Shown: positions 5,956 through 21,133, counted from the stretch's first letter. The stretch: 48,186 nucleotides of DNA from Pseudobdellovibrionaceae bacterium (GCA_030591685.1 JAUVAX010000016.1:1-48186), one strand, 5' to 3'. A program made the numbers and translations. The notes: generated from the sequence alone by a model not told the origin.

Positions 5956-6053
5956 TTACTGATTACTGATTACTGATTACTGATTACTGATTACTGATTA
6001 CTGATTACTGATTACTGATTACTGATTACTGATTACTGATTACTGATTACTGA
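5956..6053. repeat. Perfect tandem repeat (TTACTGA)x14
   Basis: 98 bp = 14 exact copies between two convergent genes. Confidence 0.98.
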
Positions 6054-6054
6054 T

Positions 6055-6774
6055 TTAAAATCGAAGACCAACCTTTGTACTGTACACGGGTTCTTTATAG
6101 CGATCTACCTGCGCACTTACAAACACCTTTGAGTAAGCATAGGTAAATCCAATAAGAGAATGAATGTGCGTAACGGAGAGGCTCTCTGCAAGGCCTGTGT
6201 CTGTAAAATTACTCCCCTCTCGAACTCCGACAAACTTACTAATCGTTTTAACTTGCCCCACGCCGGCATAAAAAGAAGCCCTTTCAAAACTAAACCCTGC
6301 TGTGACTTCAACCCCTGTGGAGTTTGAAGTGATGCTGTCATCAACATTACTTGTATTATTGTGAACAAGCAGGGACCAAACAATGGGGAGAAACTTTCCT
6401 TGAAAAAAGCTCCACTTTAAAAGTATTCCGTATTGAGAAATAGTGGTTTGTCGCAAAGGGGGGGTAAAGTCAAAGTACAAATCCATATCATTAAAAAGAC
6501 CCTTCGCAAAAGAAAACTTAGGGTACCTTAGCTTTGAGGGCTGAATAAGTAGGGTAGAGCTTGAAAGGTCAATTTCTTCGACGTTAATGCCAATTTCATA
6601 CCCGGGGAACCCTCCTAGGGGGAAGGGGGCGGAGAGGAGCTTTGTTGAAAGGTTCATCCCTAGGGTGTGCACAAGCTTTTCGCGCTCTTGGGCGTTGAGT
6701 CCTGAAGCCAGTAAAACTTTAGCATAGGAGGGGTTAATAGGTAAAAGTATAAAAATAATGAGTAAAAAACGCAT
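6055..6774 (-). CDS. Probable outer-membrane beta-barrel protein
   Basis: Signal peptide, amphipathic beta-strand pattern, C-terminal YSTKVGLRF. Confidence 0.65.
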   Translation of the reverse strand: MRFLLIIFILLPINPSYAKVLLASGLNAQEREKLVHTLGMNLSTKLLSAPFPLGGFPGYEIGINVEEIDLSSSTLLIQPSKLRYPKFSFAKGLFNDMDLYFDFTPPLRQTTISQYGILLKWSFFQGKFLPIVWSLLVHNNTSNVDDSITSNSTGVEVTAGFSFERASFYAGVGQVKTISKFVGVREGSNFTDTGLAESLSVTHIHSLIGFTYAYSKVFVSAQVDRYKEPVYSTKVGLRF

Positions 6775-6818: not shown

Positions 6819-6849
6819 AAAAAAAAACCCTGGAACAAAAGTTCCAGGG
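6819..6849 (-). terminator. Intrinsic terminator ending the fla1 3' trailer
   Basis: CCCTGGAAC-TTTT-GTTCCAGGG followed by T9 on the minus strand. Confidence 0.9.
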
Positions 6850-6945
6850 CGGGCTTAAGAGTCGAAGTAAAGTAAAAAACTCTACAACGGGCTACTCATC
6901 TAAACTTAAAGTTAGAAAATTAAATAATAAGCTTAAATCAAAAGC
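6819..6945 (-). ncRNA. Candidate 3'-UTR-derived antisense RNA of fla1
   Basis: Lies between a stop-proximal hairpin and a terminator; 18-nt and 10-nt complementarity to the fla2 leader and 9-nt to the fla2 trailer. Confidence 0.5.
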
Positions 6946-6986: not shown

Positions 6987-7811
6987 CTAAATCAGTCTCA
7001 GTGCGCTTTGTCCGTTTTGGTTAGCACTAGCTAAGACCCCAATGGCTGCGCTTTGTAAAATACTAGCAGATGCGAGCTCAGAGGTTTCGTGAGCAATATC
7101 AGCATCTTGTATTCTCGATTGTGCCGCAGAGAGGTTTTCGTTTTGTATGTCCAGATTACTTACAGTAACTTGTAATCTAGATTGAACAGCACCAAAGTCG
7201 GCTCGCATTTTACTGAGCTTCTCAATGGCGCTATCTACAGCTGAGAGTGTGTCCCTCGACCCGCTTTTATCAGTGATGTCGAGCCCATCAATACCGAGTT
7301 CTCCGGTTGTGGCGTCGGCATTCATCTCATATCTAATAATGTTTTCTTCTCCAGCAAATGGTCCAACATGGTACTCAAGTTCACCACCTGAGCCATTTAA
7401 AAGCTGTTTATTCCCAAACCTTGTGGATTGTGAAATACGCTCAGACTCTTTTATAAGTTGCTGTGCTTCTTGGTTTAAAAATTCTCGTTCTATATTACTG
7501 ACCGTATCACTGGCCCCCTGCACCCCAAGCTCTCTAAGCCTTATCAGGATGTTATTAATTTCATTCAACCCACCCTCACTAACTTGTATCAGTGACTGTG
7601 CGTTGTATGCATTGCTTCGAGCCATTCGGATCCCTTTAACTTGGCCCTTTATATTTTGTGATATCGCAAGGCCGGCGGCATCGTCGGCAGCGTTAACGAT
7701 TCGGCTCCCAGAAGCCAGAGCTGATTGTGCATGCTCTAATCGCCGTTGGTTTTTTGATAATTGCCTTTGTGCATTTATAGATGCTGTGTTTGTATTGATT
7801 CTTAAGCCCAT
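6987..7811 (-). CDS. fliC: Flagellin (fla1), 274 aa
   Basis: MGLRINTN...SGSRIVNAADDAAGLAI...SRIQDADIA; start moved to ATG 7811 after the AGGGGG RBS. Confidence 0.97.
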   Translation of the reverse strand: MGLRINTNTASINAQRQLSKNQRRLEHAQSALASGSRIVNAADDAAGLAISQNIKGQVKGIRMARSNAYNAQSLIQVSEGGLNEINNILIRLRELGVQGASDTVSNIEREFLNQEAQQLIKESERISQSTRFGNKQLLNGSGGELEYHVGPFAGEENIIRYEMNADATTGELGIDGLDITDKSGSRDTLSAVDSAIEKLSKMRADFGAVQSRLQVTVSNLDIQNENLSAAQSRIQDADIAHETSELASASILQSAAIGVLASANQNGQSALRLI

Positions 7812-8150
7812 TGGTAAGCCCCCTAGTAGTATTGTTTTTTGCTCATCCATGTATTTTTCTTGCCACTTAAGACAGAGAGCTTACAAAAAAAGAAGGTTTT
7901 AATTAAAAAAAACTATAGTGGCTATAAAAATAGCACACAGCTTTTTTTAGATTAAAAAACTTCTAGTTATGGGCTTCTTTGCTTAATAGCAAGGACCACG
8001 TCCTAGTCTTTATTAAGTTGTTACTTGGAGACGCTCTAAATTCAAGAGGGGTGACTGACCCTCTTAAAATTTAAAGACTTATTAGAAAGGCTTATTTCAG
8101 TGACTGCTAAAACAAACGTTCTCTTTTAAGGTGCTCCAACATGTTCTGAT
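7812..8150 (-). ncRNA. Long (~340 nt) fla1 5' leader with segments antisense to other flagellin leaders
   Basis: Between the sigma28 promoter and start codon; 15-nt exact complements of fla2 and fla4 leader segments; hairpin 8037..8073 with CAGUCAC loop. Confidence 0.55.
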
Positions 8151-8154
8151 AACC

Positions 8155-8181
8155 TCATCGACCAAGGTCCAGGAAACTTTA
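8155..8181 (-). promoter_or_regulatory. sigma28 promoter of fla1
   Basis: TAAA-N15-GTCGATGA. Confidence 0.85.
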
Positions 8182-9178: not shown

Positions 9179-9269
9179 TTTCACACCCCTATCTTACTTT
9201 TCCTTTCTTAAGCCCTAAAAAAAGAAGAGTAGCCCAGTTGTAGAGATGTTGTTTTAGCAGTCAGGGGGC

Positions 9270-16850: not shown

Positions 16851-16885
16851 TTTACTATAGTCTTAATATGTTAGTCCTAAAATCT

Positions 16886-16916
16886 AAAGCCCAGTCGAGC
16901 TCGACTGGGCTTTTTT
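16886..16916 (+). terminator. Intrinsic terminator
   Basis: Palindrome AAAGCCCAGTCGAGCTCGACTGGGCTTT followed by T tract. Confidence 0.85.
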
Positions 16917-17022
16917 CTATTTGCCCACAAGTCGATAAAAACTTAGTCGAGTATTCTTTAGTCTGTAGGGGTATAAAGGTCTGTATAATTTTAATTCTAT
17001 AGTCTTGGTTTTTATTTCTTTA

Positions 17023-17093
17023 GTCTAGAATGAGCAACACCTAAATCTAGTTTCACTCGACTGGGCTTAAGCAATGACTAGCCTCGCCGAAGG
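17023..17093 (+). promoter_or_regulatory. sigma28 promoter of fla3 with upstream palindromic box
   Basis: ATCTAG-N5-CTCGAC-N5-TTAA-N15-GCCGAAGG; extra GTCTAG at 17023. Confidence 0.8.
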
Positions 17094-17285
17094 GTAAGTT
17101 GTAAGCGGCACTGGCCTAGACTTAAAAAATGAAGAGAGATTTATAGTTTTAAAAGTAGACATAAACCTCGCTAAAAGTTTTAAGTACAAGGTCTGGTGTA
17201 AAAAATAAACCGTGTCGATAGACACCACAATCTGTAAGTAGCGGTAGGTCGTGAAAGTAAATTGTGAAAAATAAGGAGAACACAC

Positions 17286-18119: not shown

Positions 18120-18179
18120 TAGTAATTATTTATAGATTTTATGTTTGGGGGGTGGTTCTCCGTCCCCGGAACTGACCTA

Positions 18180-18209
18180 CCCGGGGGGCTTGTCTCCCGG
18201 GGTTCTTTT
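18180..18209 (+). terminator. Terminator of fla3
   Basis: CCCGGGGGG-CTTG-TCTCCCGGG then GTTCTTTT. Confidence 0.7.
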
Positions 18210-18602: not shown

Positions 18603-18680
18603 ATACGTTAGTCTAGTTAGTCAATACGTTGGTCTAGTTTGCCTAGACTCGACTAAAGTTCACCCAGACTCGACCGAAGT
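18603..18680 (+). promoter_or_regulatory. sigma28 promoter of fla4 with upstream boxes
   Basis: ATACGTTRGTCTAGTT x2 (21-bp period); GTCTAG-N5-CTAGAC-N5-TAAA-N15-ACCGAAGT. Confidence 0.85.
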
Positions 18681-18687
18681 AGTGGTA

Positions 18688-18895
18688 TACAAAGCAGCAG
18701 ACCTTGGACGGTCAGAACTTAGTTAAGCTTTTGAGTGACTGCTTAAGCTTAATTAAAAAAACTAAGTTCATTTCCTCAAGTTTCTTCTGCTCCAACATGT
18801 TCAACCAAGCCTATGATGGGCTGTTCTTGGCGGGCGGTTAGGGTCCGCCAAGAGCAGGGAAGATGGAATCTTTCTTAAAAAACGAGGAGAGTCTA
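18688..18895 (+). ncRNA. Conserved structured 5' leader of fla4
   Basis: Same hairpin order and conserved loops as the fla5 leader, with compensatory stem changes. Confidence 0.7.
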
Positions 18896-19729
18896 ATGTC
18901 ACTCAACATCACAACAAACATAGCGTCTATAAACGCTCAAAAAACAATGGCCACGTCGCAACGAAGTTTAGAAAAGAGTTTTGCTCAACTTTCGTCGGGT
19001 TCAAGAATAACAAAGGCTTCAGATGATGCCGCTGGGTTATCTATAAGCGAAAACTTAAAATCAACAATCAGAGGCTACTATCAGGCCCAACGAAATGCTA
19101 ACGATGGTATTTCAATGATTCAAGTAGCAGAAGGGGGCTTGGCTGAAACCTCTAATATATTAACTCGTTTAAGAGAATTAGGAGTACAAGCCGCGTCAGA
19201 TACAGTTGGTGACACAGAGAGAGGCTTTATTAATCAAGAAGTTCAACAGTTAAAAAGTGAAGTTCAGCGTATTGCCGAATCTACCAGGTATAACGGAACA
19301 AACCTACTTGATGGTAGCGGTGAGGAGTTTTCATTTCAAATAGATATAGGCAATGATGAGTTCAGAGATCGAATTTCATTTGATGCTTCAGCTCAAGAGG
19401 TCACCCTGGGTGCACTTGATATATCTAACTTTGATTATGCTGAAAAAGACGGAGCCAGAGATGCGCTTTCTGTTTTAGAAGATGCTCAAACAAGCGTCAA
19501 CGGGCACAGGGCAACTCTTGGAGCACTTCAGAATCGCCTTATTTCGACTTCAGAGAATTTAAACAATGCTATTGAAAACTTTTCGGCAGCTAACTCTCGA
19601 ATTAGAGATACTGACGTAGCTCAATCTAGCGCCGACTTAGCAAAGGGCCAGGTTTTAAATGCAGCCTCTATTAGTGTCCTGGCTCAGGCCAATCAAATGC
19701 CGCAATCAGCACTTCGCTTAATAGGTTAA
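18896..19729 (+). CDS. fliC: Flagellin (fla4), 277 aa
   Basis: Start moved to ATG 18896 after GAGGAG; MSLNITTNIAS matches fla5. Confidence 0.97.
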   Translation: MSLNITTNIASINAQKTMATSQRSLEKSFAQLSSGSRITKASDDAAGLSISENLKSTIRGYYQAQRNANDGISMIQVAEGGLAETSNILTRLRELGVQAASDTVGDTERGFINQEVQQLKSEVQRIAESTRYNGTNLLDGSGEEFSFQIDIGNDEFRDRISFDASAQEVTLGALDISNFDYAEKDGARDALSVLEDAQTSVNGHRATLGALQNRLISTSENLNNAIENFSAANSRIRDTDVAQSSADLAKGQVLNAASISVLAQANQMPQSALRLIG

Positions 19730-19762
19730 TACTTTAAAAAAAATGATATTAAAGACGTCTAG

Positions 19763-19796
19763 ACCAAGGCCCAGAAACTGGCCTTGGTTTTTTTTT
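19763..19796 (+). terminator. Terminator of fla4
   Basis: ACCAAGGCCCAG-AAA-CTGGCCTTGGT followed by T tract. Confidence 0.85.
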
Positions 19797-19919
19797 GAAC
19801 TTAAATATAGTTAGACATTATTTTTTAAAAACATAACTTCAGTTTATACCTCTGCTTTTAAAATTTACCTTCTATAAATAGTAAAAATATAAATATACCC
19901 TTAAAGCCTATGGACGAAT

Positions 19920-19990
19920 GTCTAGATCAAGTAACACCTTCGTCTAGTTATGCTCGACTCGACTTAAGTTCGCCCGGACTAGACCGAAGG
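19920..19990 (+). promoter_or_regulatory. sigma28 promoter of fla5 with upstream boxes
   Basis: GTCTAG at 19920 and 19942; GTCTAG-N5-CTCGAC-N5-TTAA-N15-ACCGAAGG. Confidence 0.85.
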
Positions 19991-19997
19991 GTTGTTA

Positions 19998-20204
19998 TAA
20001 CAAGCAGCAAGACTTTCGGCGGTCAGACTTTAGTAAGCCTTTATGTGACTGTATCGGTTTAAATAGAGCTAAAGTCAGACAAAGAAAAATTTGCAGCTCT
20101 AACATGTTCAACCCAATCCATGATGGATATCTGACGTGCGGGAGGTTAGGCCCGTTCATTAGGATTAAGAGCAAAGAGGCTCTTAAAAACCAAAGGAGAG
20201 TACT
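19998..20204 (+). ncRNA. Conserved structured 5' leader of fla5
   Basis: Homologous to the fla4 leader. Confidence 0.7.
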
Positions 20205-21038
20205 ATGTCACTCAATATAACAACAAACATAGCGTCTATAAACGCTCAAAAAACAATGGCCACGTCGCAAAGAAATTTAGAAAAGAGCTTTGCTCAACTT
20301 TCGTCGGGTTCAAGAATAACAAAGGCTTCAGATGATGCTGCGGGGCTATCTATAAGCGAAAACTTAAAATCAACAATCAGAGGCTACTATCAAGCACAGC
20401 GTAACGCGAGTGATGGTATTTCAATGATTCAAGTAGCTGAAGGAGGTTTGGCTGAAACCTCTAATATATTAACCCGTTTAAGGGAGCTAGGAGTTCAGGC
20501 CGCATCAGATACCGTTGGCAATACTGAACGAGGATTTATAAATAAAGAAGTTCAGCAGCTAAAAAGTGAGATTCAACGTATTTCTCAAGCAACAAGATAT
20601 AATGGTACAAACCTTTTAGATGGTAGCGGTGAAGAGTTTTCATTTCAGGTAGATATCGGTAATGATGATTTTAGAGATCGAATTTCATTCGATGCATCAG
20701 CACAAGAAAGCACATTAAGTGCTCTTGATGTAGGAAGCTTTGACTATTCAGATAAAGATGGCGCCAGGGAGGCACTTTCAGTTTTAGAGGACGCACAAAC
20801 TACTGTTAACGGTCACCGAGCAACGCTTGGTGCACTTCAAAATCGATTAATTTCAACCTCTGAGAACTTAAATAACGCCATTGAAAATTTCTCGGCGGCC
20901 AATTCTCGAATTAGAGATACAGATGTAGCTCAATCTAGTGCAGATTTAGCAAAGGGACAGGTTTTAAATGCAGCCGCAATTAGTGTTCTTTCGCAGGCCA
21001 ATCAAATGCCACAATCAGCACTTAGATTAATTGGATAA
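20205..21038 (+). CDS. fliC: Flagellin (fla5)
   Basis: Close paralogue of fla4; AAGGAG RBS. Confidence 0.97.
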   Translation: MSLNITTNIASINAQKTMATSQRNLEKSFAQLSSGSRITKASDDAAGLSISENLKSTIRGYYQAQRNASDGISMIQVAEGGLAETSNILTRLRELGVQAASDTVGNTERGFINKEVQQLKSEIQRISQATRYNGTNLLDGSGEEFSFQVDIGNDDFRDRISFDASAQESTLSALDVGSFDYSDKDGAREALSVLEDAQTTVNGHRATLGALQNRLISTSENLNNAIENFSAANSRIRDTDVAQSSADLAKGQVLNAAAISVLSQANQMPQSALRLIG

Positions 21039-21104
21039 TAAATTTTAAGAGTTAAAATTTGGCAGGGGAGAACTCTCCATTCCGGCCAGATCTAACCTAA
21101 CCTA

Positions 21105-21133
21105 CCTAAGGGCTCCGCAGCCCTTAGGTTTTT
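21105..21133 (+). terminator. Terminator of fla5
   Basis: CCTAAGGGCT-CCGC-AGCCCTTAGG-TTTTT. Confidence 0.9.

Follow-up and report, generated by a model that had tools for sequence, protein, structure and literature searches.

Complementary leaders of sister flagellin mRNAs in Bdellovibrionales: a candidate RNA-to-RNA circuit for ordering the flagellins of the filament

Introduction

In Vibrio cholerae, the small RNA (sRNA) FlaX, which comes from a flagellin untranslated region (UTR), binds a sister flagellin mRNA by base pairing at several sites in its leader and changes the make-up of the filament (PMC11879080). In the hly-prsA2 pair of Listeria monocytogenes, two mRNAs are joined by base pairing between a UTR of the one and the 5' end of the other (PMC8722363), and the Escherichia coli RNAs UhpU, MotR, FliX and FlgO are FliA-driven, UTR-derived base-pairing RNAs in flagellar control (PMC10578931). 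Here we analysed the 5' leaders of the flagellin genes fla4 and fla5 in a stretch of 48,186 nucleotides (nt) from a Pseudobdellovibrionaceae bacterium (GCA_030591685.1, JAUVAX010000016.1:1-48186; hereafter the window). Complementary partners in the UTRs of other flagellin genes, above all in the fla2 leader about 10 kb away on the opposite strand, account for the conserved loops and linker of these leaders.

Each ingredient of this arrangement has a precedent in the three systems. FlaX is one 3'-derived, ProQ-bound sRNA, whereas here 5' leaders would pair with 5' leaders, 3' UTRs would pair back and three flagellin classes would be linked. The hly-prsA2 contact is a single 3'-to-5' one that stabilises an unrelated gene, and its abstract mentions no paralogue relay, kissing loop or displaced strand directed against a ribosome-binding site (RBS). 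The E. coli RNAs are listed under Hfq and act on the mRNAs of regulators and ribosomal proteins, unlike the RNAs considered here. No description of flagellin leader-leader pairing was found in the literature searched, which included few subscription papers. To our knowledge, E. coli lacks a set of flagellin paralogues that would need ordering. The kissing-loop antisense systems CopA-CopT and OxyS-fhlA, together with synthetic toehold switches, offer precedents for a loop-loop contact that leads on to invasion by a single strand, and for displacement of a strand that controls an RBS; unlike those cases, both partners here are leaders of chromosomal protein-coding paralogues.

The question addressed is how six near-identical flagellins under largely shared sigma-28 control form the ordered blocks of the Bdellovibrio filament. 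The filament order is FliC3-5-1-2-6, with FliC1 abundant and FliC2 minor. Iida (2009) mapped the blocks, and the available text of that work gives no ordering mechanism. In B. bacteriovorus HD100, two attack-phase RNAs flank the FliC1 gene Bd0604. APsRNA3 (561,854-561,981, 128 nt) has a FliA promoter and lies 276 nt before Bd0604, and APsRNA4 is listed just behind it; neither has a listed function (Karunker et al. 2013, PMC3627812). The available part of that paper, the single publication naming APsRNA3 in the literature searched, gives no target or flagellin link for either RNA and states no homology beyond B. bacteriovorus.

Results

Predicted pairing between the fla2 leader and the fla4 and fla5 leaders

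The features on which the predicted pairing rests are as follows.

18688..18895, plus strand: fla4 (FliC2-type) 5' leader, a sigma-28 flagellin 5' UTR
19998..20204, plus strand: fla5 leader, with its RBS at 20195-201
18789..18802 (fla4) and 20096-109 (fla5), plus strand: site B, GCUCCAACAUGUUC in fla4, putative strand on which the fla2 RNA would dock with its 5' end; 15 bp when 18788 is included
18735..18741 (fla4) and 20045-51 (fla5), plus strand: site A, GUGACUG, putative kissing partner of the CAGUCAC loop S3 in the fla2 leader
8020..8147, minus strand: leader module of fla2 (FliC1 type), some 128 nt long and equivalent in position to APsRNA3
8146-8132, minus strand: S1 seed of the fla2 module, predicted to pair with site B
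8115-8101, minus strand: S2 of the fla2 module, predicted to pair with the fla1 5' end
8057-8051, minus strand: S3 loop (CAGUCAC) of the fla2 module, predicted to pair with site A
8030-8024, minus strand: anti-seed/anti-RBS strand of the fla2 module

The 5' start of the fla2 transcript is the reverse complement of the fla4 linker. The word GCUCYAACAUGUUC occurs only three times over both strands of the 2.66-Mb genome, namely in fla4, in fla5 and antisense in fla2. We collected 91 FliC1-type leaders, and 69 of the genomes also had a FliC2-type leader of at least 150 nt. In these 69 genomes, the longest Watson-Crick helix between seed and leader averaged 11.4 bp within the own genome, against 7.7 bp with foreign and 5.6 bp with shuffled leaders (0/20000 permutations), and it reached at least 9 bp in 57.

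For the covariation table, seed and site B were located independently, site B by consensus matching, and 65 of the 69 genomes were kept (G025, L094, L096 and L097 were dropped). Among 780 cells, 666 carried the consensus pair, 55 were changed on both sides, 23 were G-U and 36 were broken, 19 of the latter at the position before +1. Two-sided changes were seen at all 12 positions, and departures in the seed were compensated by Watson-Crick pairs in 53 of 63 cells. Compensated variants recurred on separate branches; for instance, C-G became U-A at position 7 in five changes on the tree, while the summed count of 32 tree changes is inflated by register shifts. Additionally, G-U pairs outnumbered A-C mismatches 23 to 4 at positions 2-12, an excess that speaks for RNA of the transcribed strands and against a site in DNA. 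The fit between the leaders therefore appears, from the alignments, to be kept by matching mutations across Bdellovibrionales, an order of predatory bacteria. Three later held-out genomes, found by covariance model, all fitted (12, 13 and 15 bp), one of them with a new compensated seed. A model of the module matched 10 of 151 genomes of the phylum at E <=0.001, and the nine strong ones, source genome included, all belong to the same order; the remaining match, G091, was weak. The model used (R1, 12 pairs) misses the divergent form of cultured Bdellovibrio, so its blanks do not mean absence.

The second predicted contact involves site A, whose sequence complements the S3 hairpin loop exactly in 56 of the 61 combinations of leader and loop. 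Ten of these are compensated variants: GUGAUUG/CAAUCAC nine times (5-6 tree changes) and GUGACUA/UAGUCAC once. The broad-window test of S3 was weak (96/20000), and the narrower site A/S3 test that followed it is post hoc. On fla2, S1 lies 5' of S3, and on fla4, A lies 5' of B; this is the antiparallel arrangement that one two-site complex needs. With the 128-nt fla2 module, the cofolding gain was 13.6 kcal/mol for fla4, 13.0 for fla5 and 3.2 for fla3. The leaders present complementary exposed loops and a second single-stranded site in antiparallel order, as a kissing-loop complex does, and they show a complementarity between sister flagellins that compensatory changes preserve, as a trans base-pairing UTR RNA does.

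Shared words of this kind could also be protein-binding RNA or DNA sites, or relics of duplication, in a leader controlled mainly by CsrA and FliW. Indeed, csrA and fliW are adjacent in the genome (C35:69278-70050), a GGA lies no more than 33 nt after site B in 31/47 long leaders and at -45 to -17 in 40/47, AACAUGUU is palindromic, and B. bacteriovorus CsrA represses a hag reporter (PMC13443453). The presence of csrA-fliW and the GGA motifs in many FliC2-type leaders recall the CsrA-FliW-flagellin partner switch of Bacillus subtilis, as outlined in the same source. However, neither site A nor site B nor the GUAGGU loop is a GGA site, each of them has an RNA partner, and the AUGAU loops of the source genome contain no GGA. 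On the transcripts, each partner word is the reverse complement of the other and the two vary jointly; the G-U excess is expected of RNA pairing and not of DNA, and the spacing of the two sites differs between the partners, unlike that of an inverted copy. We therefore regard this explanation as very improbable for the shared words, while CsrA probably acts as an added layer. The leaders of the genes fla6-fla8, which together make up the FliC3, FliC4 and FliC5 types, carry several AAGGA words, the usual CsrA pattern.

Two groups of genomes depart from the common seed. In the clade of L164, L165 and L160 with L094, L096 and L097, the altered fla2 5' end no longer fits site B and shows a partial fit to a new site some 50 nt upstream of the FliC2 start codon, possibly a rewired pairing. 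In the clade of L166, L172, L173, L175 and L182 (genomes of L129, L132, L134 and L136), the fla2 seed is distinct (GUGCAUGAYGAAG-like), and the FliC2-type genes retrieved have short leaders with no seed match.

Structure of the fla4 and fla5 leaders

The initial annotation of this locus described a novel structured motif of about 210 nt in the fla4 and fla5 leaders, shared in part by fla3 and matching no recognised riboswitch. The remaining elements are listed below.

18692-99, plus strand: 5' word AAGCAGCA of the fla4 leader, with its counterpart in fla5 at 20002-09
18700-13, plus strand: fla4 GACC-N6-GGUC
18715-69, plus strand: fla4 long hairpin with GUGACUG at its tip
18808-22, plus strand: fla4 AUGAU hairpin
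18836..18842 (fla4) and 20144-50 (fla5), plus strand: GGUUAGG loop (consensus GUAGGU), complementary to ACCUAACC/ACCUAC in FliC2-type 3' UTRs
18858-74, plus strand: fla4 RBS-proximal hairpin
18886..18892, plus strand: fla4 RBS GGAGAGU, complementary to ACUCUCC in the fla5 3' UTR
17101..17285, plus strand: fla3 leader, same promoter class, with GGUAGG at 17243-48 and RBS GGAGAAC at 17275-81

All listed elements were found in both leaders at the places given. The annotated span 18688..20204 comprises the two leaders with the fla4 coding sequence (CDS) between them. The claimed sharing with fla3 holds for the GGUAGG site, while sites A and B are both missing there. The GACY-N6-GGUC sequence is present, but the hairpin proposed for it is not in the minimum free energy (MFE) fold of fla4 or fla5, and GAC-N4-9-GUC occurs in only 29/65 related leaders; neither this small hairpin nor the AUGAU loop is general among them.

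Folding z-scores against shuffled sequences were -4.5 for fla4, -2.4 for fla5 and -2.5 for fla3; the median over 65 related leaders was only -1.3, with 21 below -2. Site A is partly paired in the fla4 MFE fold and lies at a hairpin loop in 48/60 relatives. Stem covariation was counted on the 17 leaders of the short Bdellovibrio-type form, as the 36 long leaders (39% identity) have stems that MAFFT does not align. As annotated, the stems diverge with compensation while the loops are kept: 16 of 28 pairs showed two-sided changes, a number reached in 0/500 shuffles, in a sample of kin that are not independent and with a structure derived from the same alignment. The stems were 92.8% paired, against 34-46% for slid controls. 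In the leader consensus, the GUGAYUG loop, the GUAGGU loop and the site B linker are unpaired.

Conserved loops on covarying stems would also suit a ligand-sensing riboswitch or a thermometer. There was no Rfam match at gathering score in the window, and the 10 matches below threshold, in three loci, belong to unrelated families, none of them bacterial flagellar or riboswitch. Moreover, the conserved bases of the loop and the linker change along with the partner RNA, whereas a ligand pocket would stay fixed, which makes a sensor of this type extremely unlikely. The fla4/fla5 motif is real, being conserved, outside Rfam and covarying in its stems, but it is not a stand-alone riboswitch, and the self-contained character originally assigned to it gives way to partner RNAs that account for its loops and linker.

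Predicted fold of the fla2 module and proposed mechanism

In isolation, the fla2 module folds into two hairpins closed by a helix of the 3' half of the seed with CUCCAA, leaving the toehold free. This seed/anti helix formed in 51 of 57 truncated modules, with the toehold 89% and the S3 loop 98% unpaired. The seed/site B duplex was stronger than seed/anti in 44/44 cases (median -21.3 versus -9.6 kcal/mol). A free toehold, a weaker internal helix and a stronger trigger duplex are traits that the module shares with a toehold switch. The CUCCAA strand is predicted to bind the fla2 RBS about as well as it binds the seed (-10.1; control windows, -5.5) and covaries both with its own RBS (0/20000) and with its own seed (38/20000). 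As a separate candidate, we considered site B as an anti-RBS strand inside the FliC2 leader, and it was rejected: the predicted effect was small and CUCC is absent from many copies of site B.

Complementarity, covariation, strand asymmetry and predicted accessibility are the observations made here, and from them leader-leader pairing very probably occurs in vivo. Our account of its outcome is a best guess, less supported than the pairing itself. In the best explanation, to which we assign a probability of roughly 0.5, the fla4/fla5 leader acts as a scaffold that displays sites for RNA-RNA pairing in trans among flagellin transcripts, and a displaced anti-RBS strand silences the earlier flagellin. 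The leader stems would hold out three recognition elements, namely site A, site B and the GUAGGU-type loop with the RBS. Site A would first kiss loop S3 of the fla2 module; site B would then capture the free 5' toehold and invade the seed/CUCCAA helix to form a duplex of 11-16 bp. The displaced CUCCAA strand would pair with the fla2 RBS, or would expose the AU-rich stretch behind it to cleavage, and the later flagellin mRNA would thereby turn down the earlier one. Kissing, invasion and anti-RBS release are favoured because the anti strand pairs and covaries with the fla2 RBS, and they agree with the order FliC5-FliC1-FliC2.

Several results weigh against this explanation. The permutation tests overstate significance, as the genomes are related, and the per-column counts are inflated by register shifts. 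With G-U allowed, 23 sites in the genome pair over at least 14 bp with the seed region. For 21 genomes with divergent seeds, for which the prediction had been written beforehand, eight fitted (three with one mismatch) and one fitted partly, while three failed at site B, four had short leaders only and no match, and five were without a FliC2-type leader. The anti/RBS duplex beat all control windows in only 27/55, and it was not the best in the leader in the four cultured Bdellovibrio loci listed. In equilibrium folding of full fla2 leaders with the seed blocked, RBS access fell by more than 0.1 in only 3/56 and rose in three, so the switch would have to be kinetic. Finally, the published start of APsRNA3 (-276) lies 4 nt downstream of the predicted +1 (280 nt in locus L128), which would shorten the toehold.

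The same pairing might work in the reverse direction, with an APsRNA3-type sRNA from the fla2 leader repressing or delaying fla4/fla5 translation by covering site B as a ribosome standby site, much as FlaX acts on flaB. With long 5' UTRs discarded beforehand, APsRNA3 was counted as a separate RNA of 128 nt (PMC3627812), and the module ends at a median of +122. APsRNA4 is likewise reported there as discrete, yet one RNA contig spans the leader into the fliC1 CDS, in a data type that cannot show ends. Site B is largely unpaired at a median of 107 nt before the start codon, and this direction is suited by FliC1 being abundant and FliC2 minor, by the attack-phase reads per kilobase per million (11984 versus 1932) and by the FlaX precedent. 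On the other hand, it leaves the covariation of the anti strand with the fla2 RBS unexplained, and RBS access in the FliC2 leader is predicted to change little when site B is occupied (it rises in 10 and falls in 3 out of 65), so that only a standby or decay mechanism is left. We judge the reverse direction a possible outcome, though on balance an unlikely one.

Less probable still is stabilisation, in which burial of 5' ends (fla2 in site B, fla1 in S2) would shield the mRNAs from 5'-end-dependent decay and couple the amounts of the paralogues, as in hly/prsA2. Both long duplexes begin at or beside the predicted +1 of one partner, and Listeria provides the precedent (PMC8722363), but this reading does not account for the anti-RBS strand, for the kissing loop or for the 3' UTR elements that complement the RBS. 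Both alternatives are live and are not exclusive of the scaffold with its displaced anti-RBS strand.

Predicted 3' UTR arms and putative links between fla1 and fla2

Further complementary elements lie in the flagellin 3' UTRs and in the fla1 leader.

21060..21133, plus strand: fla5 3' UTR element with a hairpin that carries ACUCUCC (21072-78, anti-RBS), CUAACCUAACCUACC at 21092-106 (anti-loop) and an intrinsic terminator
18145..18209, plus strand: fla3 3' UTR element; GUUCUCC at 18155-61 fits the fla3 RBS, GACCUACC at 18174-81 fits the fla3 GGUAGGUC site, and a terminator follows
6820..6900, minus strand: fla2 3' UTR element, equivalent in position to APsRNA4, with two stretches (6895-6885 and 6860-6851) that fit the fla1 leader
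9179..9262, minus strand: fla1 leader; 5' end 9263-9249 complementary to S2 over 15 bp, and 9240-9229 and 9215-9206 fit the fla2 3' UTR

FliC2-type 3' UTRs carry complements of the GGUUAGG/GUAGGU loop and of the RBS just before the terminator. The GGUUAGG and GGAGAGU of fla4 and fla5 fit the fla5 tail, and the GGUAGGUC and GGAGAAC of fla3 fit the fla3 tail; fla4 has no such tail, therefore 3' UTR control of fla4 would act in trans. In 68 genomes, FliC2-type 3' UTRs matched the RBS over 6.21 bp against 5.60 (0/20000) and the loop over 6.14 bp against 5.86 (21/20000). The same loop and RBS queries gave no significant result against fla2 3' UTRs, used as a control. The broad first pass on FliC2 3' UTRs was weak (47/20000, near the shuffled mean) and was narrowed afterwards, so the tests above are post hoc. 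The 3' UTR arm is a weaker signal and less certain than leader-leader pairing, because its helices are short and its tests were narrowed after that first pass. Binding of the FliC2-type 3' UTR element to the GUAGGU-type loop and the RBS would repress by occluding the RBS.

The fla1 5' end matched S2 of the fla2 leader over 13.6 bp against 8.8 (n=50, 0/20000), with 47 at 9 bp or more, and the fla2 3' UTR matched the fla1 leader over 9.6 bp against 7.8 (n=46, 0/20000). The fla1 leader is thus predicted to pair with both UTRs of fla2. The FliC2-type tail also fits the fliC5 leader at both sites in 4/4 cultured Bdellovibrio. Silencing of the earlier flagellin by the later one would also suit two further pairs, in which the fla2 3' UTR meets the fla1 leader and the fliC2 3' UTR meets that of fliC5. 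Pairing of the fla2 3' UTR with its own RBS was not significant over all 86 genomes (5060/20000) and is not claimed.

The positions of APsRNA3 and APsRNA4 coincide with the fla2/fliC1 leader module and the fliC1 3' UTR element, a match made by offset and orthology and not by HD100 sequence.

Two observations concern other 3' UTRs. In cultured Bdellovibrio (L183-L186), which have neither fla1 nor S2, a GGGAUA loop in the fliC1 3' UTR fits AUCCC before the fliC1 Shine-Dalgarno sequence in several rows. FliC3-type 3' UTRs (C85 fla7 of the source genome; L197-L200) have GUUUCCUGCGA in common before the terminator, and the adjoining UCUGUU fits the fliC5 leader in 3/4 cultured genomes, possibly a further link of the relay.

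Flagellin genes and promoters

The window contains five flagellin genes. Two (fla1, fla2) are encoded on the minus strand and three (fla3, fla4, fla5) on the plus strand; three more lie on other contigs of the genome, whose named relatives are Bdellovibrionales.

9178-8351, minus strand: fla1 flagellin CDS
6987..7811, minus strand: fla2 flagellin CDS, 274 amino acids (aa), FliC1 type
18896..19729, plus strand: fla4 flagellin CDS, 277 aa, FliC2 type
20205..21038, plus strand: fla5 flagellin CDS, 277 aa, FliC2 type
18654..18680, plus strand: sigma-28 (FliA)-type promoter of fla4, TAAAG-N15-CCGAA, predicted +1 18688
19964..19990, plus strand: sigma-28-type promoter of fla5, predicted +1 19998
8155..8181, minus strand: sigma-28-type promoter of fla2, predicted +1 8147

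Flagellins were typed by identity and synteny against four named Bdellovibrio genomes. As a result, fla2 was assigned to the FliC1 type (65-67% identity) and fla3, fla4 and fla5 to the FliC2 type (62-65%), and the lengths of fla2 and fla4/fla5 match those of Bd0604 (274 aa) and Bd0606 (277 aa). The three flagellins outside the window are of the FliC5, FliC3 and FliC4 types, and fla1 had no clear counterpart among the 5-6 flagellins of the four genomes. An in-frame ATG at 18863, the start chosen for fla4 by an open reading frame (ORF) finder, had no homology support. Downstream of the fla5 CDS lie a 123-aa ORF, fliD and fliS.

A sigma-28 promoter, TAAAG-N15/16-CCGA(A/T), stands upstream of each of fla1-fla5, which places them in the sigma-28 (FliA) regulon. 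The promoter of the orthologous fliC2 (Bd0606) has been mapped and marked FliA, with its transcription start at the 10th nt after CCGAA (PMC3627812), and the +1 positions of fla4, fla5 and fla2 were predicted from this spacing. In one Bdellovibrio RNA run, contigs end at exactly the equivalent +1 bases of both genes at locus L128 (9721, 11921), a weak hint. The RNA runs consist of contigs only, which reveal neither transcript ends, strand nor level.

Upstream of the FliC2-type promoters (18605-18653, 19915-19963 and 17018-17066), a periodic DNA motif, GTCYAG-N16-GTCYAG-N4-CTNGAC-NCGAC, abuts the -35 box, and it appears in the consensus of 75 FliC2-type promoters. FliC1-type (74) and fla1-type (36) promoters have other, class-specific words upstream. 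These motifs are probably sites for an activator that grades the sigma-28 promoters. Elsewhere in the window, about 14 tandem copies of a 7-nt unit (AATCAGT, minus strand) occupy 5957-6055, immediately after the stop codon of a 239-aa ORF, and CTCGACTGGGCT is common to the terminator hairpin after an 818-aa ORF (16884-16911) and the fla3 promoter region (17056-17071).

Discussion

The pairing described here would, on the favoured explanation, order or ration the flagellins in a filament built of blocks. More broadly, and only tentatively, we propose for Bdellovibrionales a chaperone-free relay of natural toehold switches, in which the leader and 3' UTR of a later flagellin would capture the 5' end and RBS of an earlier one, so that the mRNAs themselves would time the succession of blocks in the tapered filament. 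No Hfq or ProQ was found, there being no PF17209 or PF04352 match in the genome (completeness 100% by marker genes).

The results point to an undescribed RNA-to-RNA circuit, which may decide the sequence in which flagellins enter the filament. The finding names bases to mutate in a tractable bacterium that is not a pathogen, and offers a candidate function for two orphan attack-phase RNAs, APsRNA3 and APsRNA4. If true, it would add a natural example, of a kind seldom seen, in which mRNA leaders control one another through loop kissing and strand displacement where no Hfq or ProQ is recognisable.
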